Positions 21,314 through 59,990 of a stretch of 64,000 nucleotides of DNA are shown in pieces. Made by a program: the position numbers and the translations under genes. Location: NCBI GenBank assembly GCA_905178155.1, contig CAJINV010000001.1, forward strand, positions 5,243,994 to 5,307,993, given 5' to 3'. The notes below the pieces were generated by a model. The model did not search any database. It had not been told where the DNA came from and saw only the letters and a list, made by a program, of their open reading frames with translations. The first letter of the stretch is position 1. The number at the start of each line of letters is the position of its first letter. Origin of the DNA: Amoebophrya sp. A120. Its lineage: Eukaryota; Protista; Dinoflagellata.

Positions 21314-23504
21314 TTACATATCTTCGTGTTGATAAATGGCCATTTCCCCAACAGCTCTCCAATACGACGCGTCTGCCTTCTCCCCTGCTGCCTCTGCTCC
21401 TGAGGCGATCCACCTGAAGATGTTCTTCGTATGCCGAGAGTAAAGGAAAGTTGCCAGCTGCTCTTTGCAGTGGAGGGTGCCAGTCTACGACCAAAAATTC
21501 ACCATAATTTAAGAATATGTCACTCTCACGACTTCGAGCTTGATTCAATGTGATCGAGCAGGGTGGCATAAGAGTCCTGGTTGAAATCGCAATTCTATGT
21601 ACCTGCGCCACAGTCTCTGCGCCTCAGGATCGTAGGGGGTGTCGACAGTCCCGGCGTCAGGGTGCACCAAGAATTCCCACAAGCGGTCAATCCAGCCGTG
21701 GAGAGAGTAATGCTGGCACTATCCCATGCAAACATGCGTGTGATGGAACTCGTTCCGAGAGCCAACTTAGACTTTAATCGGCCAAAACAACAAAGTTTCA
21801 GTGATGGCTTGCAACCTTTAGTCGGACCGCTGTAAATGGAAAACTTTCGACTTTCACCACAGCAGATACATACTTACTCCTAGTTGTATCTGTTTTTCAG
21901 TAAAAGTAACAAGGTCATCCAAAAACGAATGGCGTCTTGGGGCGCTTTTCGATGTCGCACTCGCACACTTGCGAGCCTGGTAGGCCATGCGCAGAAGTAC
22001 TACTACAAGATCGTTGCACCGGATAGCCAATTACCCTCGGAAATCTTGAAACAGCACCTCCCGCCTGTTTTGTAGGATGAGCGCTTTCCTACCGATGTAC
22101 TCAAGGAAGAAGACACATGCCATCGTGTCATATTATGGTAAAAATTTCTAACTCAGAAGCCTTGCACACTGGGGCTTGAATGAGGCAAATCCATTCCTGG
22201 CTCAGAAAGCTAACTAGTGCAGGACTCATCATGCGGCCGTCCACAAAACAGTTTGCTACAACACTACTCCCTAGCTGGATTAGAGTTAGTATCAATCTTA
22301 CTGGTGCCGCTGTTGTTTATGTGTGCGTGGAACGTCTTGAATTTTGCATAAGCCTGGGGCTGCTCCGGGAGGCGGACCTGCAACGCGTTCGGATCCTTGT
22401 AAATATTCCAGCCTTCAGGCACCGAAAACCCATCCGGAATCATTATCTTGAAGTGCTGTAAAGGCAGTAGTGGCACATTCATTGCAGGGTGGAGAAAAGT
22501 CAGTCTACGCAAGCTCAAAAGAAAAATGCTATAGTATTTCTACTCCGTGCGGACCATGACGATATTCATTTTCTGCATCATCTGCAACCCCGCAGCGGGA
22601 AAAAAGCAAGCTGAAGTCATCGCTATTCAAAGGTACAAACATGTTCCTGCGTGCATCAGTGAGTCCGTGCAAACCTTTATACCATCAACAGTCCGTGGTA
22701 GTTTTGATAAGGGAAGCTGTGTGTCGTCGAGAAGGTCTTCTGGTCGGGCAGGAAGTCTACCAACAAATTTCCGTCATCCGTGACTTTGGCATGGAGCGCT
22801 ATGCATTCGCAAAACTATCATGACACCACGCCTGGGCATACACACGCTGCAACAATTTCTAATGATCCATCAGCACCTTCAATACAAGCAGACAGAGCAA
22901 ATCTGCAGCTGTTGCCAAGTATTTATATATAGAAAAGGAAAACTGGCACGTTGACCGTGACAGCGCCAGGTTCCAACATGTGAGATTGTTTTGCCCCTGA
23001 TAAATTCGGGCTCGTCACCATTGTCCCACTGCGCATTGATGTAACCTTCCACCCAACGCTCCAAGGCGGCCTGTATTTTCAATATTTTTTCTTCAACGGG
23101 TGGATATCATATTCATAGATACCGATCGTTGCAATTAGGAAAACAAAGTCCAACGTCGACGAGCAAGATGTGCTAGTGTAAGTATGTCTGTCACTCACGA
23201 ACAGGAATTCACGAGAAGCAGCATGTGGAAGCAAAGCAGCTGCGAAAATGGCTGTGCAACGCTTGGATCAACAGACCTTCCAGACGTAAGAATTACTATT
23301 CAAAAGGACGTCAGAATTACTATTCAAAATAGTTATGACTTCCATTGCATCATCTACAACAAAGTTCCACCATGCCATGTTGCAGTATCAAATTGAACAC
23401 ACTCACACTTACTGTACCTTTTTGTCTCCGTCCCCGCCGCGAAGAGTGACCGCCAAGGTTTGCGCCGCAAGGCAGCACGCCAAAAACAGGGTCTGCTTCA
23501 TCAT
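21314..23504 (-). CDS. Signal-peptide-bearing divergent E2 (UBC-fold) protein, paralog A, multi-exon
   Basis: Signal peptide MMKQTLFLACCLAAQTLA. Exons: ALERWVEGY..EPEF; VTDDGNLLVDFLPDQ..YQNYHG; FKIMIPDGFSVPEGW..QPQAYAKFKTFHAHINN; HYSLHGWIDRLWEFLVHPDAGTVDTPYDPEAQRLWR; ..SYWRAVGEMA. The exon carrying the catalytic Cys was not resolved. Confidence 0.65.
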
Positions 23505-25474: not shown

Positions 25475-27186
25475 TCATGCATGACAGAATTCTAGTTGAT
25501 TTCTGTGTACTTGAAAAAGAGCATCATAGGTTGGAACTCTTGTTCCAGACCCAGACACCTTTGCAATGCATAACTGATGGCTCGCAGCCATTTGTCCAAC
25601 TGCTTTCCAATAACTCGGATCGCCCTGGGTACTCCACTTTTTCCACAAATCTTGGGCAGCTCTGTCGTAGGGCGTCTCAACCTTTCCCGCATCGGGAGTT
25701 ACAAGAAAAACCCATAACCGCTCAATCCAACCCGCGAGAGAGTAGTGGGGCCATGTATCATCCATAATCCTAAAACAGCAATGCCCGTCGCCACCTGTTG
25801 TATTGAATAAAAAGTATGGAAATTGGAAAGTCCGAAATGGAACAACTCGTTTGCTCGATGAAAAGCAGCAAATTAAACCACTCAGCTATCTTCATCTCGA
25901 ACGGTTTCTACCAGATCTCAGGTCACACGCCAGATTCATGAGATCCAGAGTCGGTGTCATCAATAGAATCTTTTTTCGGCATGCAAAGGAAAATTTTGCA
26001 TGAATACAGCAACATTTAGACTAACCAAAAATGTGAAGATGTAGACTAACCTGCTTTGTTGTTGATATTTGGATGGAAGGTTTTGTATTTGGCGTACGCA
26101 ACCGGCTGAGTCTTCATCTTTACTTTCAAAGACTGTCTGTCTTCAAGGATGCTCCAACCCTCCGGGACGAAGAAGTCGGGGTCCCTGATCACAATCTTGA
26201 AATGCTGTGTAGAGGTTTGCGATGACGAAATGTAAACTCTTCTTCTGTGACAGTAACTCGGGCATGTGGAATTTCTATATCGTCTACCTTTTCGATAACT
26301 AGCATTGAAAACAAGAATCAAGCTACGGCATCCCTGCGGATCATACGGTCGAAGCTGAAAGCGCGGCCACTAGTACAACCGCCATATGCATACCAACGAA
26401 ACCACACCACAAAAAAAATCTTACGCAATCCAATTGTATGAAAACCTCAATCTATATTACCATGTAAATCCCGGAGTAGTTCTCGTATGGCAGCTTTACA
26501 AACGAAATTTCCATGGCAGTTCCATATCTGAAGTCGGACTGAACACACAAATTGCTTAAGTACCCTACTTAGTCTAGCCCGAGCAGGCGGAAGACTACTA
26601 GATACCTGACAGTTAGTCCGTGCGACGAATGCAATGGCGCGCATGCCGACTACTATTGTGCCTGAAACGGCTATAATTTTTCCGCCACAGATCCTACTTG
26701 TGCCCTGCACAGGAAGGTAACCACCTATTTCAGGAAAGGAGCTGCCAAGAGAAACTTCAATGGGATACAACCCGCCGCGTCGCGTCAAATTCTTGCTGGT
26801 CCGGCTCGAATGCCACCAGCAAGTTTCCGTCTTCCGTAACCTTCGCACGAAATGTGGGCTCGGGCTCCCCGTTTTCCACCTCCTCCCATTTTTTTCCGAT
26901 GTAACCTTCGATGAACCGTTCCAAGCTTGCCTGAGTTTCATGTAAGTTGGAGCTTATCATCAGTTTTGCAAACCGGAAGCTGCACACCAAAAGTGCAATT
27001 GCTTCATCCTTCATCTCCACATGTAGTCATCATGAACAGTAATACGTAGCACAGCAAAGCACGTATTGGTTGCGAGGGGAAAGTAGCTACCTTCTTCTCC
27101 GACAGTGATTGGTTTTTCAGAGAAAGCCCGGCCGCAGACCCAAAGGCAAAGATACCCACTACCGACGTAATCAAACCGCGTCTCAT
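25475..27186 (-). CDS. Signal-peptide-bearing divergent E2 ubiquitin-conjugating-like enzyme, paralog B, multi-exon
   Basis: Signal peptide MRRGLITSVVGIFAFGSAAG. SLERFIEGY..EPTFRAKVTEDGNLL; FKIVIRDPDFFVPEGW..QPVAYAKYKTFHPNINNKAG spliced (GT-AG) to GDGHCCFRIMDDTWPHYSL..LVTPDAGKVETPYDRAAQDLWK. The HPN motif and downstream Cys match the UBC active site. Confidence 0.75.
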
Positions 27187-28938: not shown

Positions 28939-30151
28939 TCATGTGGATACTTTTTCCCAAACCTTATCCCAGTACTTGTTGCGGTCCTCCTTCCACAATT
29001 TTTTCGCCTCGTCGTTGTACATCGAGCCTGTTTGGTCGCAGCCGTCCGGGTCGATAACGAAGCCCTCCCAGAAAGCCATAATCCACGCGCTAAGGGTGTA
29101 CGCCTGCTCCCCCCACGAGCCCATAGTGAAGCAGGCATTTCCACCTGTAACCAAAATTAAATGTTGACACTTACTGCGTAGAGTTCAGCTCGCCCACCAC
29201 TCAATCAGCCCTAGTGGACACGAGTTTTCTACACTCGAAAGAAGTGTGCCGGTTATGAGTAGCCTCTGGAAAAAGTCACGGACGATTCCGCTATCGATAC
29301 TCATACAAATTATGCAAATGCGAGAAGGAAAGCAAACGGAAAAAAACCATAAATGAGTTAGTACTGATGGAAGACATGTGCGGGTGGTAAATGGGATACT
29401 GCGCCATGGCGTGCGGCTGACCGGAAAAACGTACTCTCCTCTCGTCCTTGTCGGAGAGGATACTCCAACCCTCGGGAACACGGAAGTCGTCCGGAATAGA
29501 TATCTTGAACGCCTGTCGGGTGGTTTGTAGATCGTTTTGCCGAGAACTTTACCCGCCTTGGGATAAAATCATACTTGGAGCGTCTGCTTACCACCTGCGC
29601 ACCAAAAAATATCAGATCGATCATCACCAGAGCACCAGGAAGCATAGTTGATGTCGCTGCCTTCATATTGAAAAACAGGAACTCGAAATCGCAATCGGAA
29701 TTAGATTGAGAAGATTACAAAAAAAAAGTACGAGCTCGACCCCCTTGTAGTAGTGTCCGGGCGGCAGCGAAAAATAATTGTCCAGGATCAATAGCGGCGG
29801 CAGGAACACGATGAAGAGATTGCCGTCATCAGTTGCCCACGCACGAAAGCCTGGGTCTTCGTCTTCTCGAATCTTCGTGTTCACGTAGCCCTCAATCCAC
29901 GCCCACACCATGTCCCTTTTCGCGCCCAGAACAGGCTCAATCCCGAAGAAACCAAGTAAAGCGGCACATCTCGCTATCGAAAGAAGAAAATCATACATCT
30001 TCGAGAGGGTCCCCACCACACAAGAACCGCATGCCAAATACAAGCGGATTAAAATTTTTCATCCTCGGCCGATTGGGGTACAGCGATTGCTTGCTTTCGT
30101 TGCACTGCTTACTCCAGCACCGAGGGCGCAAAAGCACAGTGCTCGAATCAT
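28939..30151 (-). CDS. Signal-peptide-bearing divergent E2 ubiquitin-conjugating-like enzyme, paralog C, multi-exon
   Basis: Signal peptide MIRALCFCALGAG. WIEGY..DPGFRAWATDDGNLF..GHYYKG; AFKISIPDDFRVPEGW..QPHAMAQYPIYHPHMSSI spliced (GT-AG) to SGNACFTMGSW..IDPD..YNDEAKKLWKEDRNKYWDKV. This matches the UBC consensus YHPN-x-SG-x-C..W..P..N.EAA. Confidence 0.75.
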
Positions 30152-31536: not shown

Positions 31537-33191
31537 TTACATCTTTTTCGAACTTCCGAAAACAGCAGGAGGCAGCGCACTTCGTGGCACCGGCTCACCT
31601 ATCAAGCTTCCGCTCATTCCTGTTTTGCAGAACCGGGCGCCTACAGCCGCAAACTGAGACCCCGTGCTCTGGGTGCCTTCATGTTGCAATCGTCGATCCC
31701 GAGCCCAGTGCAACATTGGATTTCGTCTCGCAGTCAGAATTTCCCGCAGCAATATGGTCATCGTGGGAATTCATGATCGGGATGGCCCGTCCTTTTTCCG
31801 CTTGACTTGTGTATAAAATTCTCAAAGCGTTGTAGCACCTCAGGCATTTGTGCACGAAGCACATCAGTAAAGATTTAATGTCATCTATGTGTATTTCGCT
31901 CATTATGCATGATCAGAGGGCAAAAGCTGCTACACGTATCTTGAGGGAATCGCGCTTGCAGAGAAGCTCCTGCAGCTGCAGTGGGCGAGTATGTAAGCTG
32001 ACGAAGACGCACATCATGCATCCACACAATTTACGAAACAGATATCGCAACATCCACCTACGAAAATGCAAACTCGATGTGCTAGCTTTTTTTTCTCTGA
32101 TATCTCTGCGAAGGCAATGAGGTCCGGGCCGCGGCTCGTCAGGTTATCCCGTATGGTCATCGTGAGGTCAGAACTTCCTGGACGTGCAGTTGTGCTCTCA
32201 ACAGCAAGAAAGTCTTTTCCTTTGATCATGTACCTGCGTATTATGATTGAGTATAAAAATCTTGATTGCCTACTTAGGTACAATATTTTCGCTCGAACCG
32301 GGACCAAAAGAAACTGGGCCGAAGGTGATTCCAGGGACAACTTTTGAGCGATGCAAACCTGTCGACGATGGACAGAAGTTTCCATTCAAAGCCAGCTTTA
32401 TGAAGAATTATCAGCGCAGTGGTGGTGCGACTGTGAGTTTGTGCTCGTGGCAATCTTCACGATGAGGGACTCAAGCGAGTAGATGAAATGATCCTGCAGC
32501 AACGGCTGATTCGAAACTGATGCATATAATGACCGGAATAACAAACATCGTACCGTCGGCCCTTTTTCGGTCCGTTGGGATGCAACTGGAAGATCCAGTC
32601 TTTGACTTTCTGCATCTTGTCCTCAAACTCGAACTCGGCCATCCCGACGATATGCAGCAGAAAAGCACACCATTGTATACGCACCACGTGCTGGGAGCAT
32701 ATTCTGGACCGAGAGTTCATGCATTACTGGTACTTTAAATATCTGCCCTTAATGCGCTTCTTACCAATCTGATAGATCAGGCATCCATTTGGCGGTCCAA
32801 AAAACATGTTGCCGGTGCAGCAAGAATCTATTTTACGTAGACAAATTGCAATTGCGTGCGCTCTTTCCGCCTCTTCATGCAAAACGTACAATATACAAGA
32901 AAACACGCTATTCAATCCGGCCTCCAAGGAGGGACTTTAGTACGACAGACTAGTCACCAGCAGCATGCTCGATGTGCCCGCAAGCAGGATAATGCATTCA
33001 GCTACTTTCACTTCTAGTACGTGCAGGGCAGATAGCTGCCAAGCGTGGTGTGCGGATGAAGTGCTACAGTTTTGCTTTTCGTAGAACGGTGCTGAAACAT
33101 AGAGTTTTACTTTCGGCGCAGCCTCCCCGACCCAGACTGTCGCCAGAAGCACCTGTATCAAAAAGAGCGCGCGGCGACCCGCGGCACCCAT
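31537..33191 (-). CDS. Secreted ubiquitin-like small protein, family member 2, multi-exon
   Basis: Signal peptide MGAAGRRALFLIQVLLATVWVGEA. Exons: AEFEFEDKMQKVKDWIFQLHPNG; RYMIKGKDF..SDLTMTIRDNL; PIMNSHDDHIAAG; GEPVP. These share motifs with members 1, 3 and 4. Confidence 0.45.
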
Positions 33192-34612
33192 GGTGTTGCC
33201 GTTGCCGCGCCGATTGCATGGAGAGGCTGCCATCTGGGTGCGATTGAAGGTTACTGCGCCAGGACGAAAGCCTGCGACTCCAACACTACGACTAGCTATT
33301 GCCAGCAAAACGAGATCGTCTGGTCCTGGTACTTCGCATTCACTGTACTTAAACGCCGTATACTCTACAACCCCTAGTAGAAAATAGTAAGAGACTGACA
33401 CTGAGAACGAATATGGAGATAGAGGTGGAGCTCGCGCCCGCGACTACGTACGGACATACCTGCAAGAACGTGCAGTCGTACGCAAGGAAGAAAACTGCAA
33501 AGGAGCAGCTTGCAAGGTAAGCAGTGGATCATGCCTCGCGAACGTGATCACCGGACCTTGTCGAAGCGAACTCGACTTTCACGGATCTCCCTCCGGGACC
33601 ACACCGTTTTCTTCTGGATCTTCGGGTCAAAGGATCGACTTTCCATAGTGTCATGATCACAACGAACAGCAGATGATACTAGTCGTGTCTCTATTTCTGC
33701 CTCGAAACAAAACGCAAGCGAAGACGGGAGTCGCCGGGTTCGGGGTGCAACTGAATAAATAAAAGAAGCAGCCATTTTCCAGCGCGTAAACCTACTTGTT
33801 TGATAGGGTCCTTCTCCTTCGATATAAAGAAAGCATAAACGAGCGACCTCATGATCTTTATCAAAGATTCCAAGGAGCAGGCAATCACCACACCAACCTG
33901 CTTGCCAATTTCTTCTGCGACGCAAACTGTTGCGGTTGTCTAGCAGATGATAAACCTTCGTTCCAACTTATTTCAATCCGTGTGCCAGTGCTCCTGGCAG
34001 ACAAGGTAATCGTAATATTGACGATACTAGGGTAAAGCGCAGACCTGGCCACGTAAGAAGCGGCAACGGGTAGAAAGTTTGCTAGTACGCCTTATTTTCG
34101 TTGTAGTAAACTACTTAATTCAGTGATCCCGCTCGGGCGTCCATCTTTGCCCGCTCTTTGCCTTCCACCTCCTCGATGTTGTATTTGTATTGCGCAGGCC
34201 TCGCGGTTCAAGCGCTAGGGCGCGGTTCGGAGCCGTACCACAGCTCCAGCGACGGCAGATCCCTGTCACCGAACCTCTCGTACTGCATAGCATACCTTCG
34301 CAGCTCCCGAGCGGACGTCCACCACGCCGGCTCCGCGGTGCTCTCTTCGTCCGGACTCGCGAGGGACTTCATCGTCATCCCACCTGCCTCGACCTTGATT
34401 TTGCTTTCCAACAGCATCTGAGTCGTCTCATGTCTTGCGGTTATCCAGTGGAAAATGTCTATCGCCATCGGTCCAACACCATTTCCATTCCTGCTGCCAC
34501 TCAAAAATGCACGATGCGCATCTATGTGTAAAGCTCAAATTAAAGCTTGCGACTCAAACCCGAATTTGCAACTACGTTTTGAAGCAGGTATACCGATTGA
34601 AAAAGACGCATA

Positions 34613-37600
34613 TCATGCAACAACCATAAATGCATAAATCAATATTTTCCAATGAACCGGCCAATGCAAGCTACTATGAATCGGAAGAGCGAGAGACGTT
34701 GACCACAGGATAGCGTGCTGAACGATGTCCCGAAGCGTCGTCTTCAGCGAAAATCCCCGACGAGTCCATTCCTTGCGCAGACGGCCCACTTGCGTCCGCA
34801 CGATGTCCTCGAGCTTCACCGCGGCACGGTCCCCGGAGCCTCCGGACGGCCCGGCCAAAAAGCCACCGCCCCCCTTCGGAGGCCCAGCCGACGCCGCCGG
34901 GTCGGACCAGCCCGACTGCGCGACGGCGTCGATATTGGCCTGTTCCCACGCAGGGTCATTGTATTCGGGGAACGCGCCAATTTGCTGCAGCAATTCGGCT
35001 CGGACGTCCTCGCGGGAGAACGACGCAACCGGAGCCCGCTGTCCATCGCTCGCGGTCATGCCGGGCGGCGCCGGAGCGCCAGGGACGTCCTTCTTCGGAC
35101 CCACTTTCTGCGACAGGCTCCGCTCGATCTGCCGATACAGGTTCAGCGTCGTCTTCAACATCGGGGCGCACACATCGATTGCACCTTCCACCGTGTCGCC
35201 GCCAGCAGGCGCCCCGGTTTCCAGTCGGGATGTGCCTTCGGTAAACCAGCGGTTCCGGACGCTCTCTGCTCCGCGCATAAAATCCACAGCGACCGCCTTC
35301 AACGATGTAAGTCCTCTGGAGGTTTTGCGCTCCAGACTCCGCTGTTGTCCCGGAGACGTACCACCTTGCTTCGGGCTGTCGGGCCGCACCACTGTCTCCA
35401 GCGCGTGACCAATGAGCTCTGCAAGGAGCGCATTCCCGCCTGTGCTTGGCGAGTGAGTCAGCAAAATTTCGCGACAAAACTCTCTAGTGCCGTCGTAGAG
35501 CGTGAGATACTGCGGTATCTTTTCGTCTACCTGCCCCTGCAGGATGTCGCCTTTCTTCACGAAGTACCCCAACCGCACTTGCCATTTGAAAATCCGAATG
35601 GCCAAGTACTCCCGCGCCCACTGCAGTACTCCGCCGAGCGTGGTGGCCGGCACCCGGGCGGTTTCCCAGACTCCCCATTCATCCGCCGTGGCTTCGATGC
35701 TGGCTCGTGATTGGTAGAAGTGCCCCATGTCACTCGACGACGGATTCGCGAGCGTCTTCAGGTCAACCGTATGAGAGTGCACAACTCCCCCTCCCCCTTA
35801 TTTGGATGGCATCCGCAGCAACACAACTCCTGGCACAGATGCAGCTATTGAAGGACAAATTTACGACTGATTGTAGTGGCGATTCGGCTTTGGGAATCTG
35901 TCATGCGAGCAGTGCCACAGAGCAAAGAGTGGATTTGGTATTTTGCATCACAAATGAGGGGGACGAGGGGGGCGAGTTGTGCACTGCCATAAACCGCCTC
36001 GTCGAAACAGTGAACTTTATTTGCACCGCACTTCCGGCGCTTTCTCGCCTGCATCGAACCATCTTCAGACCGATCATACGCCTCTTGGAGCTGCTTTTGC
36101 ACCGTCTTGAACACCTGGATCATGGCTACGCCTGTTGCAGCTGCGGTCACAGCGATCGACGCCGCCCCGATGCGACCGGCAATGCGGGAAACAGCTGCCT
36201 TCTGCATACGCGGGATCTGGTGATTCCGCGCGCGCAGGTTGGCAGCAGAGTACACAAAATCAAGGTGGCTCCACTGATCTTTATCATACTCGAATTTCGC
36301 CACTTCGTCTGAGGACGGCGGTTCCGCAGCGGTGTCCTCCTCGCCCAGCATCGCAGTCAGCCCCCTGACTAACTCGCGGATCCGCAGGAGTGCGGCATCA
36401 TCGGCCGCGCCCGACTCCATTGGCTCCTGCTGCATCGCCTGGGGAGACCAGGGTTTCACGGTCAGACCTGCCGTGCCCCCAACATACTGGAGTGGACGAC
36501 CATGATCGTCAACCACGGCTTCCAAGCTGGGATCAAGTTCGGTCGCCGCCACACGCTGTGGACCTTTCGTTGTGCCGCCGGTCGTCGTGACCGACGACTT
36601 CGCTTTCGAGGACGCCGCCCATTTCGTGCGCTCGCGCAACATGCTCGCTGCCAGCCGAGCCAACAACTGCTTGTGAATCGCCGCGTTGCTCCGGACATAG
36701 GCAGCATGCGTGGAGTCCTCGTGCAGCTGCAGGCCTTCTTGGAAGCTCGGGAATTTGCGTTTCTCGTGAAAAAAGGGCGTGCCATCATCTTCGACCTTGT
36801 CCCGCGGGTACCGGCGTTGCAGGTCGCGCACGGCGTCGTGGAAGTGCAGCCAGAACAGCTGCACGGACAGTTCGGCCGACACGCGTCCGACAAAGCCGTC
36901 GAGTTCCGCGTCCGAAATCAGCGGAGACGTCTCCAACGCGGTCCACAAAGCCACAATCGCCTCGATCCGGAACAATTCTTCACGGCGGCGCGCGAAGTCC
37001 AAGTCGCGCGCCTGGGTTGCGGCCTTCAGCTGCCGCCGCAGGTCCTTCATCGTCACGGGAAATTCGTTGAAAGAGCGTTCGAACACCTCCCGGGCCCAGT
37101 GAACGCAGTCGGCGGCCGTTCGCGGAAACTGCCGCAACTGGCACGCGCGCACATTCGGATCCGGTGCGCCCTTGCTCGCGGAGGACTTCCAGAAGTTGAG
37201 CACCGCAACTTTCCCCTCGTAACTGGAACCCGGCGTTCTCTCGAACCGTTTTGCGTTTCGCCGCAACGACGCGAACTCTGGGGTCTCGTGCCCAACTCCA
37301 GCAGAATCGACCGTAGCAAACACGTCTTCCAGCGCCCCCAGCTTTTCCGCCATCACCGCAGGCGTGTGCGGTCCCCCGTCAGAGAAGTAGGTCCGCACGG
37401 TACTGCCACTCACCGAAAGTACCTCGTGCAGGTACTGCGGAAATTGGCTGTCGCTGGTCCAGTCGTGCCACTTCCAGCAGTTGGTGTGGTAGAGCTGGTA
37501 CATCAAGGTCTTGCCGCTCAAGAGGATCACTGGCTTCCCCTGATGCATGTTCGTAAAGTAGCTATACAGGCTCTGCTGTTGCTTGTTTGTGCATGCACTT

Positions 37601-40600
37601 TCTATTTTGAATCAAAAAATGCGGCGGTTTCGGAAAGAATCAAAACAACTACATGCTCGCGTGAGACAGGCTGTTGTTGATGTTGCTCTGGCGTGACGTG
37701 CAAAGAGTGCAGCCATGAGAATGATTATGATAGATTGATAAGCAAATAAGTAAAAACTACCTCATCGTCCAGCTCGTTCAGAGGCTGATCGGTCGGCAGA
37801 AACGTGACTTGCACTGCAAACGCTTGCGAGGTATCGTCCCCAGCTCCGGTCTCCGTAAGACCATCTTTTCGGTCCCGGAAAGTGGACACAAAAGGGTAGA
37901 TCACGCCAGTCTCGCCGCTGATGCGTGTGCTAGTTCCACAGTTCACAAATGGAATCTGGCAGCGCATGCACATATCCTCAATGTAATACCGCCCGTCCCA
38001 CGTATCCAAAGCGGAGAGCACAACGTCGGTCGACTTCCACTTGGGGAGCAGCCGAGCTGTAGTCTCCGGACAGACCTGACAGTTGTAGTAGTTTAACGCA
38101 TGCAAAATCTCCACGCAGATCGCTACTACCTCCGTAGGAGCTCCGCTGAAAAGACTCAGAGGAATTGCGAAATCAGGCATTTTCAATCAGAACGTAAAGA
38201 GGGAGCAATGCCATCCTGCACTCAATCTCAAGCGTCGCGGTGCTCTAATTGCAATTTATTTCTGTCTGTAGAAGCGAAGGTCGAGAAATTAGAACCACCA
38301 TCAATCAAATAAAGTTTAACTACGTATGCTTGAACGGCTTCATAGCCGATCTCGGGCCAATGCTCGGCCAACGCGTTTCCTGCCACTACCGCCTTGGGCT
38401 GGTTCCAATGATGCGCACGAAAAAGCAGCTGGCGGCTGAGGTTGGACACCTCAATGACATCCGGGTCGAGTAGCACCAGCTTTCCGCCTTTGTCTTTGCG
38501 GGGAAACCCCATGGTCGCCAAGGTCTTCACGTATTCATTTCCGACGGCGCCCACCCCCGGTAGAAGAAAGCGCGTCCGCTGGAGTCGGTCGAGCAGGGCG
38601 TCTCCGAAGAGATAGAGAACGTCCCCCGAGCGCTGATCTTTCCAAGCGTCACAAGTCTGTGGCCCGCTGGTCATGCCACCCAGGTACAGTTCGGTGTCGG
38701 TGTGCGACCGCTTTGAAGAGCGCGAGCGCGGAGCAAAGGTTGCGTCTGCACGTGCTGGTGACGGGGGGCGACAACCGAAGAGCTGCCGCAAGGTGCGCAA
38801 CACGTTTTCTTCGGTCAGAACCGTAAGAAATTGGGCATGCATGAACCCTTCGAGCGGTACTCCCGCTTGCCTCTGCCCCGCAATTTTGGCTATTTCCTGA
38901 GCTACCACGCCAGCCAATACGGCCGACACTGGTAAGAATTCGACTTCTTCCTGAGCAAAGTAAGTCGCCAGAATCAAAGACAGAGGCCACTTCTGGAGAT
39001 CAGATTGCGCACTGGGGCTCGGATCCGCGATCGTGACGGAGACCGTCCCGGGATTTTCCTGAGAGGACCCGCCCGCCGGCGGCGTGGCGTCTGCATCGTC
39101 CTTCCGATCCTGAGACGTTGGCGAATTCAAGTTGGAAAAAGCCTCCACCGGTTCCACGCGAAAGCCACAAGCATCTGCGGCCCCACCCAAATCGGACGTC
39201 TGTGATTCGAACATCTCACGGCGCAGTACTGGTCGAAGCGTACTCTGCCGTGCGGCTTCGCGGAGGATGTCAAAGCAGACCTTCTCTACTTCTGACGCGG
39301 AATAATTATTCAGTCTCGCGGCGTTGTTCATCGCGTGGCGCCGCAACAGCTCGAGTCGATCTTCACCTGGAAAATTGATGTAGATCTAGAAGATTCTCTT
39401 ATATTTAGTGACTGCAACACAAGTGAATATTGTTTACAGAATCTCTTCTGCGTGCAAATGTGGATGCAGACTTTAAGTTCTTCTTCTGGTTTAATTGATC
39501 GCACATCACAATCAAGTGTGCTGCAGCGACGAACCCTAACGAAGAAACTAGCTTTTCTCCTCCTCATGTCCATCACACGACCAATCATACATAGTTGTAA
39601 ATCTCTCATATTGGAGTTCTTACGTGTTGAGTTGGAGCTGATCAGAACTGGATCTGTTGCTGTACCAGCTTCGCCGACGGCTACGCCGGCGCTAGCGGTC
39701 AAGGTGGCCATGAGAGAGCTGTGAATCGAAACTTCGTCCGCCGCGTCCGAGAGGTCCGTCAGGTCATCCAAGCTATCCGGAGCTTCCGCGGCCTCGGAAA
39801 TGCGCTTCGCCTGCGTGTACACAACACGCGGCCATTTCTGGCGGAACGTTCCGCCCACAAGCGTCGGTGGCAGCGGCTCGTGAAAGGTGACGAACCGATT
39901 ATCCTTGTCTACTTTCGCCACGTAGAACCGCTTCGTTTTCAGGCTCTCCGCCCCATCGGTGTTTGTACTTTCGACGTCTTCAAACTCAATCCAGGGGGCG
40001 TTCGGACCGTTGCGCTCGGCTGCTGCAACCTGCTGCAGATCGTGGCTCTCCATGGACCCACCTACGAGCTCCTCCGGTTCAGGAGGCAGGTAATGGATCC
40101 GTCCCCCTTGCACCTTCTCTATCTGAAAGGTCGCATCGAGCTTATCTCTCGCCTCCATAGAGTAGGCCTTCCCAGGATCCTGAAAGATCGAAGCGAAGAG
40201 TCCCTGCGAGCGCGCGTACAAAAAGCGAAAATTTTTTCCCGCCATCGAGGCTTCGTCACGATTTGCATCACGGTCAAGCCCTGGATGCTGCTCTTCCTCT
40301 TCGTTTGGCGGTTTGGACAACATATCGACGTCCCCGTCCGCATCAGGCATTTGCGATTTTGCTGCAGCAACGACGACTTCGTTCCACCGTTGCAGCTGTG
40401 GTAGATCAAGTCCCGGGTGGGTCGCAATGACGACTTTGCTGCTCCCCGGACCATCCAGCCAAGAGGGCAAAAATTCGGTCTCGACCGCACTTGCAGCATG
40501 AGCGACGATGCTTACCCGACAGCGCGGGTTCAACTCCTGCAGTCGCGCTGCCACGATGCCGTCGCAAAAAACCTGGTACCGCGAACCGGACACGCCGGGG

Positions 40601-41184
40601 TCGACCGAGGAGCGCGCAGAGACGTGCTCCACGACGGTTTCTTCCCCGGAGATCTCCCCGCGCGGCGCGGAGCCAGCACGGCTACTTTGCAAAAAAGACA
40701 AAGCCGCTGGTAACTGGTTGCACATCAGCCCGAAGCAACGGCTCGTCAACGACGACTGCCGGGACCCCGAGAGAGAGGGCATGGACCGAGGGGACGTTGC
40801 CGCCCCGCGGGACATCACAGCTGCGCTCGACTCCGGTGGTAGAAACTGATTCAAGCCGAAGTCGTGGGCTTGCATGGGGGCCGTCGGCTCGGGCTCCACC
40901 AGCGTTAGAGTCGCACATCCCTGCAGCATCGCATTTTTTGCTGTCTCGAAAGCAAGCCCGTTCGTCCCGATGATGGCGATGTGCGTCCGCTGCAGCGATT
41001 CCGTAGCCGCTCGGCCGAGCATTGCATTTTGCCGGGAGAAAAGGTCACTTTCCTCCAGCTGGGCCTGCTGCTGCGGCACCACTCCCGCAGCCGCCGCCGC
41101 GAGCGCCGACCGACCCACGTGCAGCAGCACACAGGCGCCGATGGCGGCGCGTACCCGGAGGAATCGAGATGGAAAATCTGGCAT
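34613..41184 (-). CDS. UBA1: UBA1-type E1 ubiquitin-activating enzyme with an N-terminal signal-peptide-like segment, multi-exon, with large insertions
   Basis: Inactive adenylation half: LFSRQNAMLG..HIAIIGTNGLAFETAKNAMLQG..RLQELNP. Active half: LPGVGAVGNE..DPDVIEVSNLSRQLLFR..PKA; DVVLSALDTWDGRYYIE..C..P..NCGT. Catalytic Cys: PDPNVRACQLRQFP..CVHWAREVFE. C-terminal FEYDKD..HLDFVYSAANLRA..IAGRI. N-terminus MPDFPSRFLRVRAAIGACVLLHVGRSALA. GT-AG intron at 39367-39665. Confidence 0.9.
35776..35985 (-). mobile_element. Inverted-repeat-bounded (introner-like) non-canonical intron in the E1 gene
   Basis: Left end agtgcacaactccccctcccccttatttggatg versus reverse complement of the right end agtgcacaactcgcccccctcgtccccctcatttgtgatg. 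It lies exactly where the E1 reading frame shifts (EAVYG to SHTVDL). Confidence 0.7.
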
Positions 41185-42516: not shown

Positions 42517-43513
42517 TCAGTCGCGTGACACCCCTCCGCGCTGCTGTGCAACTTGCTCGTCGAGGTCTCTGTCTGGCGGCTCATCTCCTTCGCCTGCAGC
42601 TGCTAGGGCGTCGTCGAAGTTCCTGTATTTCAAGATAGGTAGAAGCGGATTGTAGAGCTCATGCACCACCAACCCGCAGCAGGCCGAAAATGAATACCTA
42701 GTTGATCCATACTTTTTCCAGTGCCTGGCACCGCCTTTTAAGACCTGCAGCGAGAGGTACACCGGCTTCATCGAAAACTTCTCGTGGTTATGCAAAAGCA
42801 AATGCCGCTCACCTGAATACACGCGCCTCTTGCATATACATTTACATACGACAATCAAATAAGGGATTACGAAGTAAGTATGTGCAGTACACAATGATGG
42901 GCGCGAGTTTTCCTTGGCTTTGCCACTTCCTCACCACTTGCGACAGTCCCGGGTGTGAGTTCATGTGGCTTTGGATCGTGCGGCTCAAGTCGGTCCTAAT
43001 GCTGTAAAACTTCCCAGTCTGATGATCGTATAAAAACGGCTGACCTGCGATCGTAGCCCTGCGTTGCAAAAATGTAGCCATCTAATTTATGTATCATCAG
43101 AAAAGAATCCGGCAGTCGCTCCCGGCTGAAAAGAGATGATCACGAGCCCAAAAAACCCAAAACCAACACTCATGCTATAAGGGAAGATACTTAGATTCTG
43201 AATTTCTACTTACCCATGCATGGCACACAAACACAGCCACCATCAGTGCTCAGCAAAAGCATCACGAAGATCTTCCGAAAAATAAACGGTACCGCATGTA
43301 GAAGCTGTTCCGCTTCGTACTGCCCTTTGCGTCCGCTTCTGCGCATAACCAGTTATACACCTCTTGCATCGTTCCGGATTCGAAGCTGAAGCTCTTCTGA
43401 GAAGCAATAAAACCGCCTGCTTTGAACGTAATCGTGGTCGCGCTTGCGAGTCCACAGTACGGTAGGAGCATGAATAACATGCGCAAGACCGTCCCATAGC
43501 ATCGGCCGCACAT
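42517..43513 (-). CDS. Secreted ubiquitin-like small protein, family member 3, ending in RGG plus a 4-residue tail
   Basis: Signal peptide MCGRCYGTVLRMLFMLLPYCGLASA. TTITFKAGGFIASQKSFSFESGTMQEVYNWL; RTDLSRTIQSHM; RNFDDALAAAGEGDEPP..QQRGGVSRD*. Confidence 0.5.
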
Positions 43514-44749: not shown

Positions 44750-46549
44750 CTAGGCCGGTTCCTCGCGCCTACGCTTCCCGGCTGGTGCGCGCAGTTCCTC
44801 TGCCACCCCTTCCAAAGCAGCGGCAATCGAGTCGTTGTGATTCCTGTTTTCGTCAATGTGAAAATGAACGTGGACTGTCCGTCCTGAGCGGTGGGTCCCG
44901 AGTCGTGATCGAGATCGTTTGTGTTATGGTTCCTCGAAGTATATCATCATGAATATTTTTTCTTTTTTAACAAGTAGGATATGTGTAAACTATGATGCGA
45001 TGGGCTTGAAAATAGCGTTTCTACAAGGAAAAGTAAAAGCAAAAGCTCAAGGTCCTCGATCATAGAAAACAAATTAGTACACGATGAGGATAGGCGGCAT
45101 CTTTCCCCCTCTAAAGTTGCTGACGACCGGTGCTAGCTGCCGTTCCCTTTCCATGTGCTGCTTTATGGTCAGACTCAGGTCGGTTTTCAGGTGGGCGTTG
45201 TCGTGTCCACATGAAACGCACTAATGCCCACAAGATTCACATACTCACAAAAGTTGCCCCTTTCTCTGTAATGCCTTCCGTGAGGATCCGACGGGTGGAG
45301 CTGATTGATCACACCCAAGTGATCGACATTCGTCGTACCATCTATGATTACTACGCTGACAGTGACATTCACACCAAAAAGTACACATACATACCAAAGA
45401 AGCAGTACTAAGAGAAAGCAGAATGAAAGCATGATCAATCAGAGATCAGTGCGCTTTCCAGAATGATAAAACTCCGATAGTGTTGGGGTCGAACAGAAAC
45501 GGCGCTCCGCGGCACGTCACGCTGAATTATGAGCAGTTGCGATTATTATATGTCTTGACTCCTTTTCCACGACAAGTTCAACTCCAACAGAGAATGAAAG
45601 CATGCGTTGTATAGACAAAAAAAACAACTCAGACAACAGAAATTTCATATCTTACGACAAAAAAAATCCGTTGGCTTTATCCTGTGTAAGAACGTCCCCG
45701 CGATAGAGCCATCAAGGTGCAACCTTTACGAAACAGATCCAGAAGTTGGGCGCGTTTTCAGCGACAAACCTGGCCTCATACATTCATAGTGTACTGACGG
45801 GTTGGTCGTCTTTTCCATATACAGAGCCAGTTGCATATTGTGGTTCGAGCATATACAGATTCCCTCCTTTGTACAGGACTACGACTAGCACGTTTCTGCT
45901 ATGGGGAGACGCCGTTCTCAACATGTAAGATCTGCACGACAAATCAGCTCAGAGATTGGGACGTCCTTATATTACATAGTTCCTGGTGGTCTGGCGCGTG
46001 GCGAGTTGCCGCTCCACCTCCCCTTTGATCCACTGGAAAACCTCCCCCATGGCAATATCGTCGAAAAACCTTGGACTGCTGCGAGCCGTTTACTACCTAG
46101 TCTTGTTGCGAGCGCACACACTACACCTAGGGAGAGTCCCGTGAGGACAGGTGCTAGGCGGCAGTGCTTCATGAAGTACTCCAGCCGCCCTTCCCCGTGC
46201 TGCATCGCCGATTTTGAATCAAGATGCACGACACAGTACCGGTGAAAATGGCAGTCTGTACAAATAGAAATACCAAATCTCTTCTCCCATAAATCTTCAT
46301 CCGATGCAAATACACGAAGTACCGTTCGGCAAATCATGACCCTTACAAGAGAACATAGTAAGCTCAGACGCCCAGCAGTATTTCTCTCGTTCGATACGTG
46401 TTGGTTTCGTAAATGAAGGTCTCCTCAGGTTTCGCCGCGAGAAAGCCGCCGCCGATGAATTTGATCGGTGTCGCACACACGCCTGGCACCTGCTCGTGGA
46501 GCATCGCAAGGATGACCGACGGCAGGAGCTTCTTCAAGAGGGCCCGCAT
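44750..46549 (-). CDS. Secreted ubiquitin-like small protein, family member 4, multi-exon
   Basis: Signal peptide MRALLKKLLPSVILAMLHEQVPGVCA. TPIKFIGGGFLAAKPEETFIYE; FFDDIAMGEVFQWIKGEV; NRNHNDSIAAALEG..KRRREEPA*. Closest to member 3. Confidence 0.45.
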
Positions 46550-48110
46550 CTCGTGCCGGTCCGCACTTGTGCTGCTGAGAGAGTTGGAAGCCCTGGGAAG
46601 GTGGCGTGCACGTGATTATCAATGTATGATAGAGGTGGAATATTTCAACTGCGAGCAGGAACTACTTCCTTCGTATCTGGCGATTAATCAGGTAGTGACG
46701 TAGCGCTCCCGCGAAACCTCCAGGAGACGGACTTTACACTTGTCAAATGTCGTGCTCAGATGAACTACCTGAACCACTTAGAAGGCGGTCCTTTCTTTCT
46801 TGTAAGGAGAACGAATAGCGGTTTATCGCTTCGAAGATATAGTCTCTGAGGTTGTGACTCTGAAATGAAGACTCTTCATATCGTTCACGTTCAGTATGTT
46901 GACTGGAAGATTCTCAAGCTGCTATAATTGGAGCCACACATTCACGAATAGATTTACTTACATCGTGAATTGCGATAGATACTTTCTTATCGCTTCTCAG
47001 CGACTTTTTCTCCGTGTCTTCGACGAGAGGCACAGGCGCAACTACACGCGAGGGGGAGGGCCAGAAAATCAAAATCAGGCGCTACTAGCTAGCATGATAT
47101 GTCAGCAACAGCATGACCAGAAAAAAGCATCAGCTGCACATATTACAGATGATCCACGCGGCGAGGTCGAGAGTTCTTCGACGAGCAAGGGAGCCAAGAC
47201 CTAGAGATCCTTCCTGAACGCCCCCAAGTGACGAAAAACGGATCCGCGTCCGAGGGCTGGAGATGAGCGATTGCTTGAATACCAAGCCAAAACAGATCCA
47301 TAAACCAGCGGAGAGCTCGCTTGATCAGGATACGGTTGATCTTCGGATCTACAAATGAAATCAGGTCCGCTTGGACCAATCCACGAGAGGAGATCGTACT
47401 TTCTTCTGATGCAAGATCGGAGGAAACGCACAAGATTCCGAGATGGAGTGAGCACGTCCTTACGTTTTGAAAATACTTAACCAAAACAAGCTGACAGCAC
47501 TTGCTTGCGACAGTGCATTGAAGACAGATACTCGAATTGCGGATAGGACACACAAATAGTATTCGCTTGACACAACTGCGCATCGCGGCGACGGTCCGTG
47601 TTCCTTATTTGGTACTTACTGCACTCGGTTTAGAAGTCTAGTTGTCGGGCGCACTGAGATGCAACGAACCTTCGCGCAGTATGTGCACGCCCTCTGATGT
47701 ATTCGGTGCAGTAAAGTTGTCCTGCTAGTGGTGGGTTATTCCAAAAGCTTCCATCCTGCAACCACCCTGACCATGCTCGAACGATGCATCGCCACGGACC
47801 ATGACAGGTCTTCCACTTCAGGACCTCTCACTTCTTTATTGAGTTGCGGGAGTAGACTGTTTTTCATTTCAAACGCTGACTTTCTGCGTTCTCGACATTT
47901 GTCATATCGTGCCAGTATGTCTTCCATTTTTTCATCATACCACTACAGCATTTCACTTTTCGTTGAGGCGCACTGTGATCAATACGAAACCTCCGACGGC
48001 CGTGGCCCCAAAAAGCACGCGCGCCAACCCTTTGTTCTGACAGAACAAAGTCACGTCATTCGTCGTTTCTTTGCGTCGGTAGTGCCTTGCGGGATGATTC
48101 TTCTAATAGC

Positions 48111-54128: not shown

Positions 54129-55375
54129 TCACGTCTTCAGCACCACCTGAGGTTTGAGCGCACACAGGTGCGTCAGATCCCGATACTTTTCCTGGTGGTC
54201 GAGCGAATACCCGACCACAAACTCGGTGCTGGGCAGCGTGAAACCGCAAAAGTCCGCCTTGAGCGGCACGTCGCTGGACTGACGCTTTTCCAGCAGCGTG
54301 GCAATCCGCAGTGACTTCGGTCCGTACTCGCGCAGCTTGGCGCAGAACAGAGCCAGGGTCTATCCTGAGGAAAAACGTCCCCACACCAGAGTCAAGTTGG
54401 GGACTTAGCAACACAAATCCAGAAGTTTTGGGAGCCACGCAGGACAAGTTGCAGTCCGTAGTGTAGTGCATGTTAGCAAGGAAAACCGCATCACAAATCC
54501 ATCTTCTTATCCTGTTTGCAGCATTACAAATTTAAAAACACGACTGGTAATGCCTCCCATGGAGATGCGCATTACAAGTCTTCCTGTCATCGCAAATCTG
54601 CATGACAACTCTGGGGCGGGGACATTTTTACTCAGGATACGGTCTTTCCGGTGTTTATCAAATCCTCGCACACTAGCACATGCTTGTCCCGAACGCATGC
54701 CAGGTTCTCCGACACAATCGTGATCTCGTGCGAGTGGTTGTCGCCCAGTCGCGCGATAACCTGAAATTCGAGGAAGAGCATCGTCTTTTCGCGCAGTTCA
54801 CGATTGATATCGCAAAGCAAGCACCTACTCTACTTCCACTTGCATTCATACATTAGTGAAAAGTCAACCTAGCAGGAGCGAAACCGAAAGCAAACTAGAC
54901 ACACGCTGGTATGAAATTCAAATTCTGCTGCACAAATCTGACCTTATACTATTGACACCGACAAACACATCAAACACACCGTGCAGAAATTTTCGAACCG
55001 ACTAGACAGTACCTCGGACTCGCTTTTACTGCCCTCGGCCCCGGGCTGCAAAATCCTGGCGTAGTGTTCGAGAAAGGGTGCCTGCGAGCTGCTCGAGTAG
55101 CATGCCATGCGAGTCAGGTACTTCAGCAGGGTGGTAAAGAAGCCCCGACTTCCCTTCAAAACGCACATGAGATGCAGCTCCTCGTCGGGGTTGTACTGGT
55201 TTCTGATGTCCATGGCGAGCTTCTCGATGCGGTCCTGAATCATCCCGTTGGAAGCCAGCACCTTGCTCACGTCGTCCTGGTAGTGGTAGGACAACAACAG
55301 ATGCGCATTCTGCAGCGCAATGGTTTCCTGCGACCGCGTCAGGTCGATGGGCTGGTGGCCGGACGCCGCCGGCAT
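54129..55375 (-). CDS. HPRT: Hypoxanthine-guanine phosphoribosyltransferase, 3 exons (55375-55013, 54760-54641, 54359-54129)
   Basis: IQDRIEKLAMDI..MCVLKGSRGFF; PRPP loop VLVCEDLINTGKT; SLRIATLLEKR..ADFCGF..FVVGYSLD..YRDL. Both introns are GT-AG. Confidence 0.93.
54360..54640 (-). mobile_element. MITE-like TIR introner (281 bp) forming HGPRT intron 2, with 3-bp TSD ACC
   Basis: 33-bp imperfect TIRs gtatcctgagtaaaaatgtccccgccccagagt / ctatcctgaggaaaaacgtccccacaccagagt. On the + strand, ggt flanks both sides (54357-54359, 54641-54643). The element ends supply GT and AG. Confidence 0.85.
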
Positions 55376-56334
55376 GATTCTTGCGTTGGTTCTTTCTTGC
55401 GAAAATGGCAAGAAAGACCCTGAAGGACGTGCAGATGCAGCCCAACGCTCGTTACTGATTCCTGAGACGGAAGAAGATGATCCTGAAATTCTGTATTTAC
55501 CACACCGATGCGAAGCAAAGGCTCCGGCAGTCGTACAGTTCCTGAGAGTGCTCGAACAGAAATTCGGTGCTTCGTCCCCCTTGGCTCGGAATGGGCTCTT
55601 GAAGTGAAAGCAGTAAGAACGTGACTTACTACAATATTCCTGAGTTACGACACAGTCAGCTTCTATCGTCGATCGTGTACTACACAGTGTGCTGCACCTG
55701 CATACCGAACGTGCGGTGTCGACGTCACCTGGTGTTTTATAGCCGACAACGAATAAAGCTCCACATCGCCAGAGGAACTTGTTGTTGTTACCGGCTAACA
55801 ACAAGAACAACAACCGCCCTGCTGCCTGAATTATTTCATTGGGTCACGTCTTGAAGACAGCTGATCGTGTCGCTTCAATGTCGCGGCGCGCTCGCACACT
55901 CCCTGCGTTCTCCGGCTTCGCCCGCTCCTGTTGACAATCTGTTCCTGCTGGCGCAAACCTGTTTTGCATCACTGGCCCGACAGAAACACTGGCTCCGTCG
56001 AGACTTTTCACTTTGATGAACTATTACACGACGCTAAGGAACGACCACACCTAGCGAAAGAACCTGAAAATTATGGTGCGGATCTGGAATGGGCGCGGAT
56101 CTTGCTTTTCATCGATCCCGTTGGTGCGTGAGGTAAAACAAGCGGATCCGACTTCACGCTTTTTAAGATAAGTACTCACACGGGTCTCGGTTGTGGATAT
56201 TGATAACTGCACAAAAAACGCTTGATGCCGATGTTGATGGTGATCACTTTTGCAGTGACGGGATGGTTGTGCTTCTGGTAGTGTTTGGACGAAGAACAAA
56301 CTACTAGCGTTGGAGCGACAAACAGAGACTCAAA

Positions 56335-59230: not shown

Positions 59231-59990
59231 TTTGGCAGGCTCTTCCCCGCGAAGTTCAAGAAGTGATCAAATTTATTGATACAACTTACTTAGTGACGTT
59301 GGTGGAGATGCATTTGTTATTTGCAATAGTTTTGATGACAGGACCGTCGTTCGTCAACGTTATTCTGTTCAGCTAGACGGTCAGTGGCAAACACAAAGGA
59401 AGCCACGTGACAGCTGCGGTAAAACTGGTAGGAAAAAAGTCAGAAAGCACAAAAGTAGCACACAGAGTGGCATTGTTCACGACTTTCACGCACGATCCAC
59501 GGATCGATTTTGTTTCGTCGACCTTGCAGAAGATTTCGCACGAGGAGAACGAGTTCTGGTATTTGAGTACCGACAGCGATCAAATCATCTTCCTTTTGTG
59601 TAATTACATTCTTCACGGCGGGAAAACGGATCTACAAGAGGTCACAAGAAGAGATCGCCGATGACTTTTTTCATGCCATGTGAACCGCAGATTTCCTCTT
59701 GGAAAATTCCCGATACCAACATATTTGCTGCAATAAAGAGAGCGCGCGCCCCAGCCGATTCATGGTACCGATTTGGCATGCGAAGAGAATACTCCTGTTC
59801 CTGAACTGAGCATTTCTTCAAATTGAAAAAGAAAACGATCAGCATTTTCTCGTGTGCCGGCAGCGCGGACTTATTTGAGGAGACAGGTTTAGCTCCACGT
59901 AGTTCGTGGGGATCATCGATCATGTAGTAAACTTTCTACACCTGTTGAAATTTCGGATCTTCCCGAAAGCAGAACTGCCGTTGTCCTGAA

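Follow-up and report, generated by a model that had tools for sequence, protein, structure and literature searches.

The stretch analysed here, called the window below, comprises 64,000 nucleotides of Amoebophrya sp. A120 (contig CAJINV010000001.1, positions 5,243,994 to 5,307,993 of the forward strand) and carries a gene for a ubiquitin-activating-type (E1) enzyme. The gene corresponds to the deposited CAD7924186.1 / GSA120T00003482001, which encodes 1915 amino acids in six exons on the minus strand (41184-34208). Beyond being an odd member of its class, the E1 stands at the core of a gene cluster that is restricted to A120 and combines it with E2-like and ubiquitin-fold genes, likewise leader-bearing. 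Coordinates are those of the window, and every gene located in it below is encoded on the minus strand. Exons 1-3 (41184-39622, 39364-38321 and 38072-37761) and exons 4-6 (37539-35992, 35764-34712 and 34435-34211) follow the deposited model, with boundaries given to the codon, and the search match of exon 1 was 100% identical to CAD7924186.1. The first-pass annotation had placed the 3' end of the gene at 34613, which is the stop met on reading into intron 5; the deposited model, the sole source for this intron, splices instead at 34712 to exon 6. The ends of introns 1-3 are GT-AG or close to it, and introns 4 and 5 are both non-canonical. Intron 4 (35765-35991) is a non-canonical inverted-repeat introner with 25-nt arms that are 84% complementary; its depth in the DNA run X5 sums to 15465, as compared to about 42, and indicates a high genomic copy number. 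Introners of this kind are known from the A120 genome (PMC7789003).

The GC content was 0.56-0.63 in the E1 exons, 0.39-0.44 in four of the five introns and 0.51 in the introner intron, and the GC content at third codon positions (GC3) was 0.57-0.77 across all parts of the gene, whose 1915 codons are unbroken. Both large inserts of the E1 have exon-like GC and GC3 and keep a long open frame. The read runs consisted of X1, which is RNA by guess and was read by half, and X5, which is DNA; X8 gave 2 reads and X9 none. The index shares of runs X1-X4 (0.76-0.81) coincided with those predicted from the spliced model (0.76-0.81), as compared to 0.70 and 0.68 without either insert, an indirect agreement.

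Leader, catalytic core and ubiquitin-like-facing loops of the E1

Judged from its sequence, the gene product is a strongly diverged UBA1/UBA6-type E1 with an intact ATP site and catalytic Cys. Pfam analysis revealed ThiF (8.6e-37) in two stretches, which represent the two adenylation domains of one chain, and UBA_E1_SCCH (4.1e-22), and the best sequence matches in the PDB were UBA6, UBA7 and UBA1 (5e-42 to 5e-34). For comparison, we used the best 150 representatives of 4673 matches from a library of 1.84 billion proteins, the closest listed match having an E value of 1.4e-40 and about 34% identity. An AlphaFold model of residues 767-1624, obtained with 86 sequences at a predicted local distance difference test (pLDDT) score of 70.5, aligned with residues 451-1027 of human UBA1 at a Z of 30.0 (525 residues aligned, root-mean-square deviation (rmsd) 6.6) and with UBA6 at a Z of 29.9. 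The ATP/Mg residues, namely the P-loop glycines, D821, D823, S828-N829-L830-R832-Q833, K845, D892 and R897, are kept as in 148-150 of the matches. The first part of the active adenylation domain, identified by alignment across intron 2 (37884-38620), was modelled mostly at a pLDDT above 90. The N-terminal ATP-contacting Arg51 (41032-41034) was invariant in all 95 relatives with a residue at that position, and the catalytic Cys1106, encoded together with the flanking Q1107 and D1117 at 37108-37143, is a Cys in 150/150 matches. Arg51 lies 740 residues ahead of the P-loop, the median in relatives being 427, and Pfam gave no match to FCCH or to the four-helix bundle in the N-terminal half. Like UBA1, UBA6 and UBA7, the enzyme keeps the order of inactive adenylation domain, active adenylation domain, SCCH and (tentatively) ubiquitin-fold domain (UFD), along with the ATP/Mg residues and the catalytic Cys. 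It departs from them by its hydrophobic leader, by some 850 additional residues, by an insert of 158 residues in the crossover loop and by changed motifs facing the ubiquitin-like protein (Ubl); the Thr and His beside the Cys are missing, and the UFD escaped detection by Pfam or by hidden Markov model (HMM).

The first-pass annotation had described a hydrophobic leader before the first E1 motif, and this was borne out. Met1 lies at 41184 with an in-frame stop upstream, and the deposited model begins at the same Met. Residues 1 to about 29 (41098-41184) constitute a predicted signal peptide with a basic n-region, a hydrophobic core and a putative small-residue cleavage site. The comparison of leaders was made by hydropathy only, on 44 sequences with a leader of at least 20 residues. 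The best 9-residue hydropathy of the E1 leader was 2.64; values of 2.63 or more occurred in 10 of the 13 matches from the leader-bearing clade described below, as against 1.46 or less in 29 of the 30 other leaders. The second Met of the protein is residue 55. Since it lies downstream of the invariant Arg51, a start behind the leader, the alternative allowed for in the first-pass annotation, would cost the enzyme this essential residue and is disfavoured. The predicted cleavage site is separated from the first E1 motif by about 20 residues, which read by eye as acidic and Gln-rich. In the leaders of the E1 (41184-41100), of two neighbouring aspzincins (~980-880 and ~4860-4790) and of the small protein P0155 (46549-46490), a His sits inside the hydrophobic core or immediately behind it, possibly a lineage habit.

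Several changes affect positions that face the modifier. The GT motif and the catalytic Cys are separated by 192 residues, as compared to 32-43 (median 34) in 150/150 matches, in keeping with the earlier description of more than 100 residues inserted before the Cys. This crossover-loop insert of about 158 residues (37170-37871) contains intron 3 (37760-37540) and was modelled mostly at low confidence, with pLDDT below 50 over residues 937-1040. Its GC of 0.57-0.60 is exon-like and above the 0.39-0.44 of four introns and the 0.51 of the introner, and a retained intron is thus unlikely. In the crossover loop a conserved Asp (109/150) has become Gly and a conserved Tyr (141/150) Arg, together with a change of Gln to Gly; this loop forms the acidic pocket that selects Arg72 of ubiquitin (PMC12355090). 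The two altered segments, GTSTRISG and IGAASIAVT, read as stated in the first-pass annotation and lie at 37937-37914 and 36171-36145, respectively. In E1 enzymes, the tail of the bound Ubl runs along the GT and IPA segments. The GT loop is one residue longer than in all 150 matches and carries T918, E923 and G925, each found in 0/150. The segment that aligns with IPAIATTT carries G1431 (0/148), S1434 (0/148), A1436 (1/148) and V1437 (0/148). The features of a housekeeping UBA1, that is, the Arg72 pocket and conserved GT and IPAIATTT segments, are therefore absent from the A120 enzyme.

At the C-terminus, the UFD is probably degenerate and extended, and not replaced as the first-pass annotation had it. 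The long C-terminal region without a clear UFD was correctly noted, and Pfam analysis gave no UFD; a Pfam UFD was likewise missing in 5 of 9 ordinary E1 matches scanned. An HMM of the UFD built from 111 matches scored 0.2 bit, with 4/300 shuffles higher, and a second one gave a best domain score of -1.3 with at least 12/500 shuffles higher and no match to the last strands. Replacement was an overstatement, as the structural model follows human UBA1 as far as residue 1027, deep inside the UFD, and the E1_UFD clusters came out on top in language-model (Atlas) features. In this alignment-guided model, residues ~1524-1615 form a strand-helix-strand-strand-helix-helix arrangement (pLDDT 45-76) that superposes on the UFD of UBA1. 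For residues 1452-1915, E1_UFD clusters took the top three places among the Atlas features at 0.79-0.81, below the 0.9 mark and hence at lead level. We place the N-terminal three quarters of the predicted degenerate UFD (residues ~1515-1615) at 35387-35689, followed by a C-terminal extension of 300 residues (34211-35386) in which the last UFD strands could not be located.

Predicted ubiquitin-fold and E2-like genes beside the E1

A profile built from exon pieces retrieved five proteins among 77 candidates, all of A120: P0155, P0156, P0157, P0158 and P0159. P0157 (164 aa, 42517-43513) has a leader and a predicted beta-grasp fold and is spliced, with a joint at 43057-43292 in X1. Its paralogue P0155 (168 aa, 44750-46549) is spliced around a 17-nt micro-exon (45655-45672), with three joints at a depth of 267 in X1. 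The splice joints matching both models were present in X1 and absent from the DNA run X5. The more distant paralogue P0159 (166 aa, 31679-33233), likewise a spliced gene, has its last exon covered in X1; its retrieval was not independent, as its own exon was in the query alignment. P0156 lies outside the window, is a tandem two-domain protein 68% identical to P0157 without Gly-Gly at the junction, and resembles ISG15/FAT10 in its two-domain form; P0158 is encoded on another contig. Hydrophobic leaders are present on all five, and the fold starts directly after the leader, at residue 24-25.

The model of P0157, obtained with 5 sequences at a pLDDT of 59, showed the beta-grasp order of elements. 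When compared by VIA with 48,161 chains, its best match was a UBX domain (Z 6.6, rmsd 2.8, 78 residues aligned). Of the 50 rows listed, no fewer than 47 were ubiquitin-type domains, by title or known identity. Foldseek placed SUMO, ubiquitin and RBD-like domains in its top rows, SUMO being the best (E 0.016). The single scores are modest; it is the uniformity of the match lists that gives evidence for a ubiquitin fold. Thus, the small proteins are predicted beta-grasp proteins, P0157 by its model and the other family members by alignment. In sequence comparisons, the small-protein profile found no ubiquitin match among PDB sequences and only unrelated weak matches in Pfam, and the Atlas features of P0157 gave no usable match. 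The clustering of the A120 genes resembles that of bacterial E1-E2-Ubl operons, and 8tyz was among the VIA rows of P0157 (Z 5.2).

In P0155, P0157 and P0159, neither Gly nor Gly-Gly stands right after the last strand, as it would in a conjugatable Ubl, free or in precursor form. A Gly occurs 9-11 residues past the last strand in all three, and P0157 has an RGG 28 residues past it. What these three share just past the last strand is the word D-x-[IL]-A-A, which is not present in P0156 and P0158. In the SUMO1 row of the VIA comparison, residue 136 of the P0157 model pairs with SUMO1 residue 96, a numbering which we take to put residue 96 at the Ubl tail; the pairing places D-x-[IL]-A-A at the position of that tail. 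Contig breaks were seen at 42978-42998, 45144-45185 and 46470-46554, and position 43029 showed an allele; a skip of 1284 nt (45185-46470) occurred in both X1 and the DNA run X5. These observations hint that the small-protein genes have additional close paralogues or alleles at other places in the genome.

The window also holds three genes, compared exon by exon, which are likely E2s by the order of their motifs. Gene a (21314-23504) is multi-exon and leader-bearing with a candidate Cys codon near 22053; gene b (25475-27186) has a leader, an HPN word near 26070 and a candidate Cys codon near 25777; and gene c (28939-29911) is a 3' part, its first exon not having been found, with a candidate Cys codon near 29133. 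All three are multi-exon paralogues and share, by eye, an HPN-type word (changed in a and c), then G-x-[C/A]-C-F and then E2-like helices. In the alignment A4, the Cys of the third row is probably an intron-edge residue and not the catalytic Cys of gene a. Two separate exons each matched the sequences of E2 structures, in the right order. The leader of gene a (23504-23410) ends in an LRGG word. An RGG within the first 170 residues was found in 9/20 E1 matches of the leader-bearing clade, as compared to 4/130 others, and not in the A120 E1.

Relatives and neighbouring genes

No close relative of the E1 was found in the 1.84-billion-protein library or in a 5.8-billion set, scans of metagenome and viral contigs gave no relative, and library searches gave no orthologue in other Syndiniales. 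The E1 and the small proteins therefore appear restricted to A120, as far as these searches go. In a tree of 64 rows (63 of the 150 matches and the A120 E1), the A120 enzyme had a branch length of 3.35 against a median of 0.47 and remained unplaced. The leader-bearing matches formed a clade (Shimodaira-Hasegawa-like approximate likelihood ratio test, SH-aLRT, 96). FastTree grouped the E1 with UBA6-like rows (support 0.44-0.81), a placement not trusted because of the long branch. We then compared 123 branches on a fixed backbone under LG+F+G4 with 2000 replicates, flagged as few, by the approximately unbiased test (p-AU). All 28 positions inside the leader-bearing clade were rejected (p-AU below 0.05), with the reservation of a simple model and a long branch. 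A position as sister to that clade (p-AU 0.10), one as sister to an alveolate/stramenopile group (0.055) and several among UBA6-like rows were not rejected, the group labels being inferred.

Elsewhere in the window, at least three paralogous leader-bearing aspzincin (M35) metalloproteases lie at 59-991, 4061-4927 and ~10300-12244 (Pfam 8.9e-7, 0.011 and 0.016); they are candidate trimmers of the small-protein tails, or simply other secreted enzymes. By eye, the piece at 14328-14522 resembles the opening half of a Ubl domain, preceded by a hydrophobic segment, and an exon follows at 13624-14097. It was rejected as a member of the P0157 family: the similarity probability was 0.5%, no PDB match was found, and the only Pfam match was OTU1_UBXL at E 0.24. 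Beside the E2-like genes, a leader-bearing and probably multi-exon gene (16413-19392) without Pfam match has a G-H-C-F word near 17940 which, to our eye, faintly recalls RING/U-box domains; it is a possible candidate E3. Beyond the cluster are housekeeping genes, namely an aminotransferase of class I/II (57230-59266; 7.2e-28) and a phosphoribosyltransferase-like piece (54944-55843; 0.01).

A predicted secretory tagging module and its alternatives

With about even confidence, we propose that the cluster encodes a secretory-pathway E1-E2-Ubl module with its own modifiers, which would carry out private tagging and likely act in the host. The E1 would enter the secretory pathway and would activate the neighbouring ubiquitin-fold proteins, not ubiquitin; the charged small proteins would be handed to the neighbouring E2-like enzymes; and E1, E2s and modifiers would be co-secreted. 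The 28-40-residue tails of the small proteins may be trimmed, perhaps at D-x-[IL]-A-A, and a tail other than Gly-Gly would agree with the widening of the GT loop, the changes in the IPAIATTT segment and the remodelling of the crossover loop. The module would work at a site that supplies ATP under reducing conditions, for instance in the nucleus or cytosol of the host, in which A120 grows. The parasite is found first within a parasitophorous vacuole and later in the nucleus of the host, where it grows (PMC9478091). Predicted leaders are found not only on the E1 but also on the small proteins, on two of the E2-like genes and on the nearby metalloproteases. A shift of specificity to a non-ubiquitin modifier and to local E2s had been put forward in the first-pass annotation. 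It gains support from the ATP and Cys residues being kept while the Ubl-facing residues are shared with 0-1 of 148-150 matches, and from the rebuilt crossover loop and the adjoining leader-bearing Ubl-fold and E2-like genes; the shift itself is still a prediction. In having a paralogous E1 with an altered Ubl pocket and a modifier of its own, the module would be like UBA7-UBE2L6-ISG15, UBA6-FAT10 and NAE-NEDD8, by the logic of residue 72 (PMC12355090). Unlike these dedicated cascades, its parts are predicted to be secretory and its modifiers have no Gly-Gly end. The known cascades of this kind act in the cytosol of the producing cell, and their modifiers end in Gly. A more specific version, which we hold to be possible and not probable, is that of a complete, self-made cascade exported into the dinoflagellate host, with non-Gly-Gly modifiers, possibly ending in Ala-Ala after trimming, whose tag on host proteins the host's ubiquitin system could neither read nor erase.

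Several observations weigh against such a module. None of the five small proteins ends in Gly-Gly, the best structural matches of P0157 are UBX and other never-conjugated domains at Z below 8 with a model of pLDDT 59, and Foldseek gave no match for it at E 0.001 or better. The assignment of the E2-like genes is weak: Pfam UQ_con was found in 0/7 pieces, and one exon alone gave no PDB match. With the profile of the Cys exon, Rad6-type E2s (positions 4-66, E 0.56-0.93) were outranked by nine rows of WD40 repeats; with that of the HPN exon, UBE2D2/D3 (E 0.99-1.3) came after two rows of collagen. Neither an E3 nor a protease for processing was identified. On the E1 itself, the leader core is short, and it keeps only 56 of 75 conserved columns, below every match (minimum 60, median 73). 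Beside Cys1106, in changes that the first-pass annotation had not mentioned, Thr is replaced by Gln (Q1107) and His by Asp (D1117), each in 0/150 matches; going by the residues involved, the thioester step may be weakened. No contig covered the E1 in the read half of X1, nor did X8 or X9 show an E1 transcript. Finally, since genes of the A120 genome lie in co-oriented blocks in any case (PMC7789003), the shared strand of the cluster is uninformative.

Foremost among the alternatives, and in our estimate unlikely, is a secreted E1 that does not conjugate the local small proteins, these being binders or decoys. Its target would be ubiquitin or some other Ubl of the host, on which it would act or which it would only adenylate or sequester. 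The missing terminal Gly-Gly (0/5) and best folds of the non-conjugated UBX, RBD and PB1 kinds would suit binders, conservation at the adenylation site far exceeds that around the Cys, and the best PDB matches, UBA6 and UBA7, are E1s of wider or other Ubl specificity. Such an enzyme sits less easily with a rebuilt version of the very loop that selects ubiquitin, with the retention of Cys1106, with E2-like genes carrying candidate Cys residues alongside, and with a common tail word at the position of the ubiquitin tail.

Less probable again is a relic of SELMA (symbiont-specific ERAD-like machinery), the plastid-import system, which after plastid loss would have been repurposed or would serve a cryptic compartment. 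SELMA of apicomplexans, ochrophytes and haptophytes is the system most like the A120 cluster in its leaders, which the trio of s_Uba1, s_Ubc and PUBL carries and which in A120 occur on the E1, the Ubl-fold proteins and two of the three E2-like genes; its Ubl is likewise divergent, and extensions remove the terminal glycine of some PUBLs (PMC12412216). For PUBL, a Gly-Gly requirement has been shown in Toxoplasma, along with a Plasmodium protein without Gly-Gly and, in Toxoplasma, an uncleaved RGG before the domain (PMC5487736), next to which stand the LRGG after the leader of gene a and the RGG counts of the leader-bearing clade. That clade is inferred to be s_Uba1, in a tree without named apicomplexan s_Uba1, and a sister position to it was not rejected for the A120 E1. 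The SELMA table of the genome paper covers only Cdc48, Derlins and UFD1, not E1, E2 or PUBL, and its main text never mentions ubiquitin (PMC7789003). On the other side, the same paper reports A120 as having no plastid and no SELMA, and SELMA was described as absent from peridinin dinoflagellates (45 species) and from plastid-less apicomplexans (PMC7617431). Judged by eye against the Ser/Thr-rich, basic transit peptides described there, no transit-peptide-like stretch follows the E1 leader, and none follows the other leaders, the fold of the small proteins starting at once. The cluster also differs from SELMA in that its genes are clustered and multiplied and its E1 was not placed within the leader-bearing clade (28/28 inner positions rejected). 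In the leader-bearing E1 matches, unlike in the A120 E1, the GT loop and IPA segment are retained and the crossover loop is short. The Gly-Gly requirement of the Toxoplasma PUBL, and the finding of no orthologue in other Syndiniales in the libraries searched, tell in the same direction.

We rank lower, as improbable, a non-functional leader, owing to an unseen upstream exon or another targeting signal, on a fast-evolving cytosolic E1 paralogue. The short leader core with its His and Arg, assessed by hydropathy only, the fast evolution of Amoebophrya proteins (PMC7789003) and the absence of a 5' RNA end among the reads seen would permit it; the deposited model starting at Met1, the far lower hydrophobicity of 29/30 ordinary leaders and the hydrophobic leaders on the neighbouring proteins speak for a functional signal. 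A decaying duplicate, with inserts and motif changes due to relaxed selection, is the least likely of all: the longest branch in the tree, 19/75 conserved columns changed and no E1 transcript in the read half of X1 are countered by the unbroken reading frame, retention of every catalytic residue, GC3 of 0.57-0.77 throughout and the spliced transcripts of neighbouring small-protein genes in X1.

Pathogens usually secrete ligases or deubiquitinases, borrowing host E1 and ubiquitin. In the open-access literature we found no paper on secreted ubiquitin-type proteins of Amoebophrya, on a parasitoid secreted E1/E2 effector or on a luminal UBA1, and the targeted E1-E2-Ubl set that we did find was that of SELMA. 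Genes of the ubiquitin and SUMO pathways have been reported to be up-regulated early in infection, with a role on host proteins suggested but neither genes nor secretion named; in the supplement, one up-regulated E1 is given per strain, with no gene identifiers (PMC6176090). A cluster derived from SELMA would bear witness to that system in the lineage of dinoflagellates, for which it is debatable whether SELMA was once present (PMC7617431). If instead the proposed secretory module is real, it would probe whether a canonical E1 can activate a non-Gly-Gly tail, and a clustered, leader-bearing E1, E2-like and Ubl-fold set in a plastid-less parasite that helps end algal blooms would represent a new route of host manipulation.

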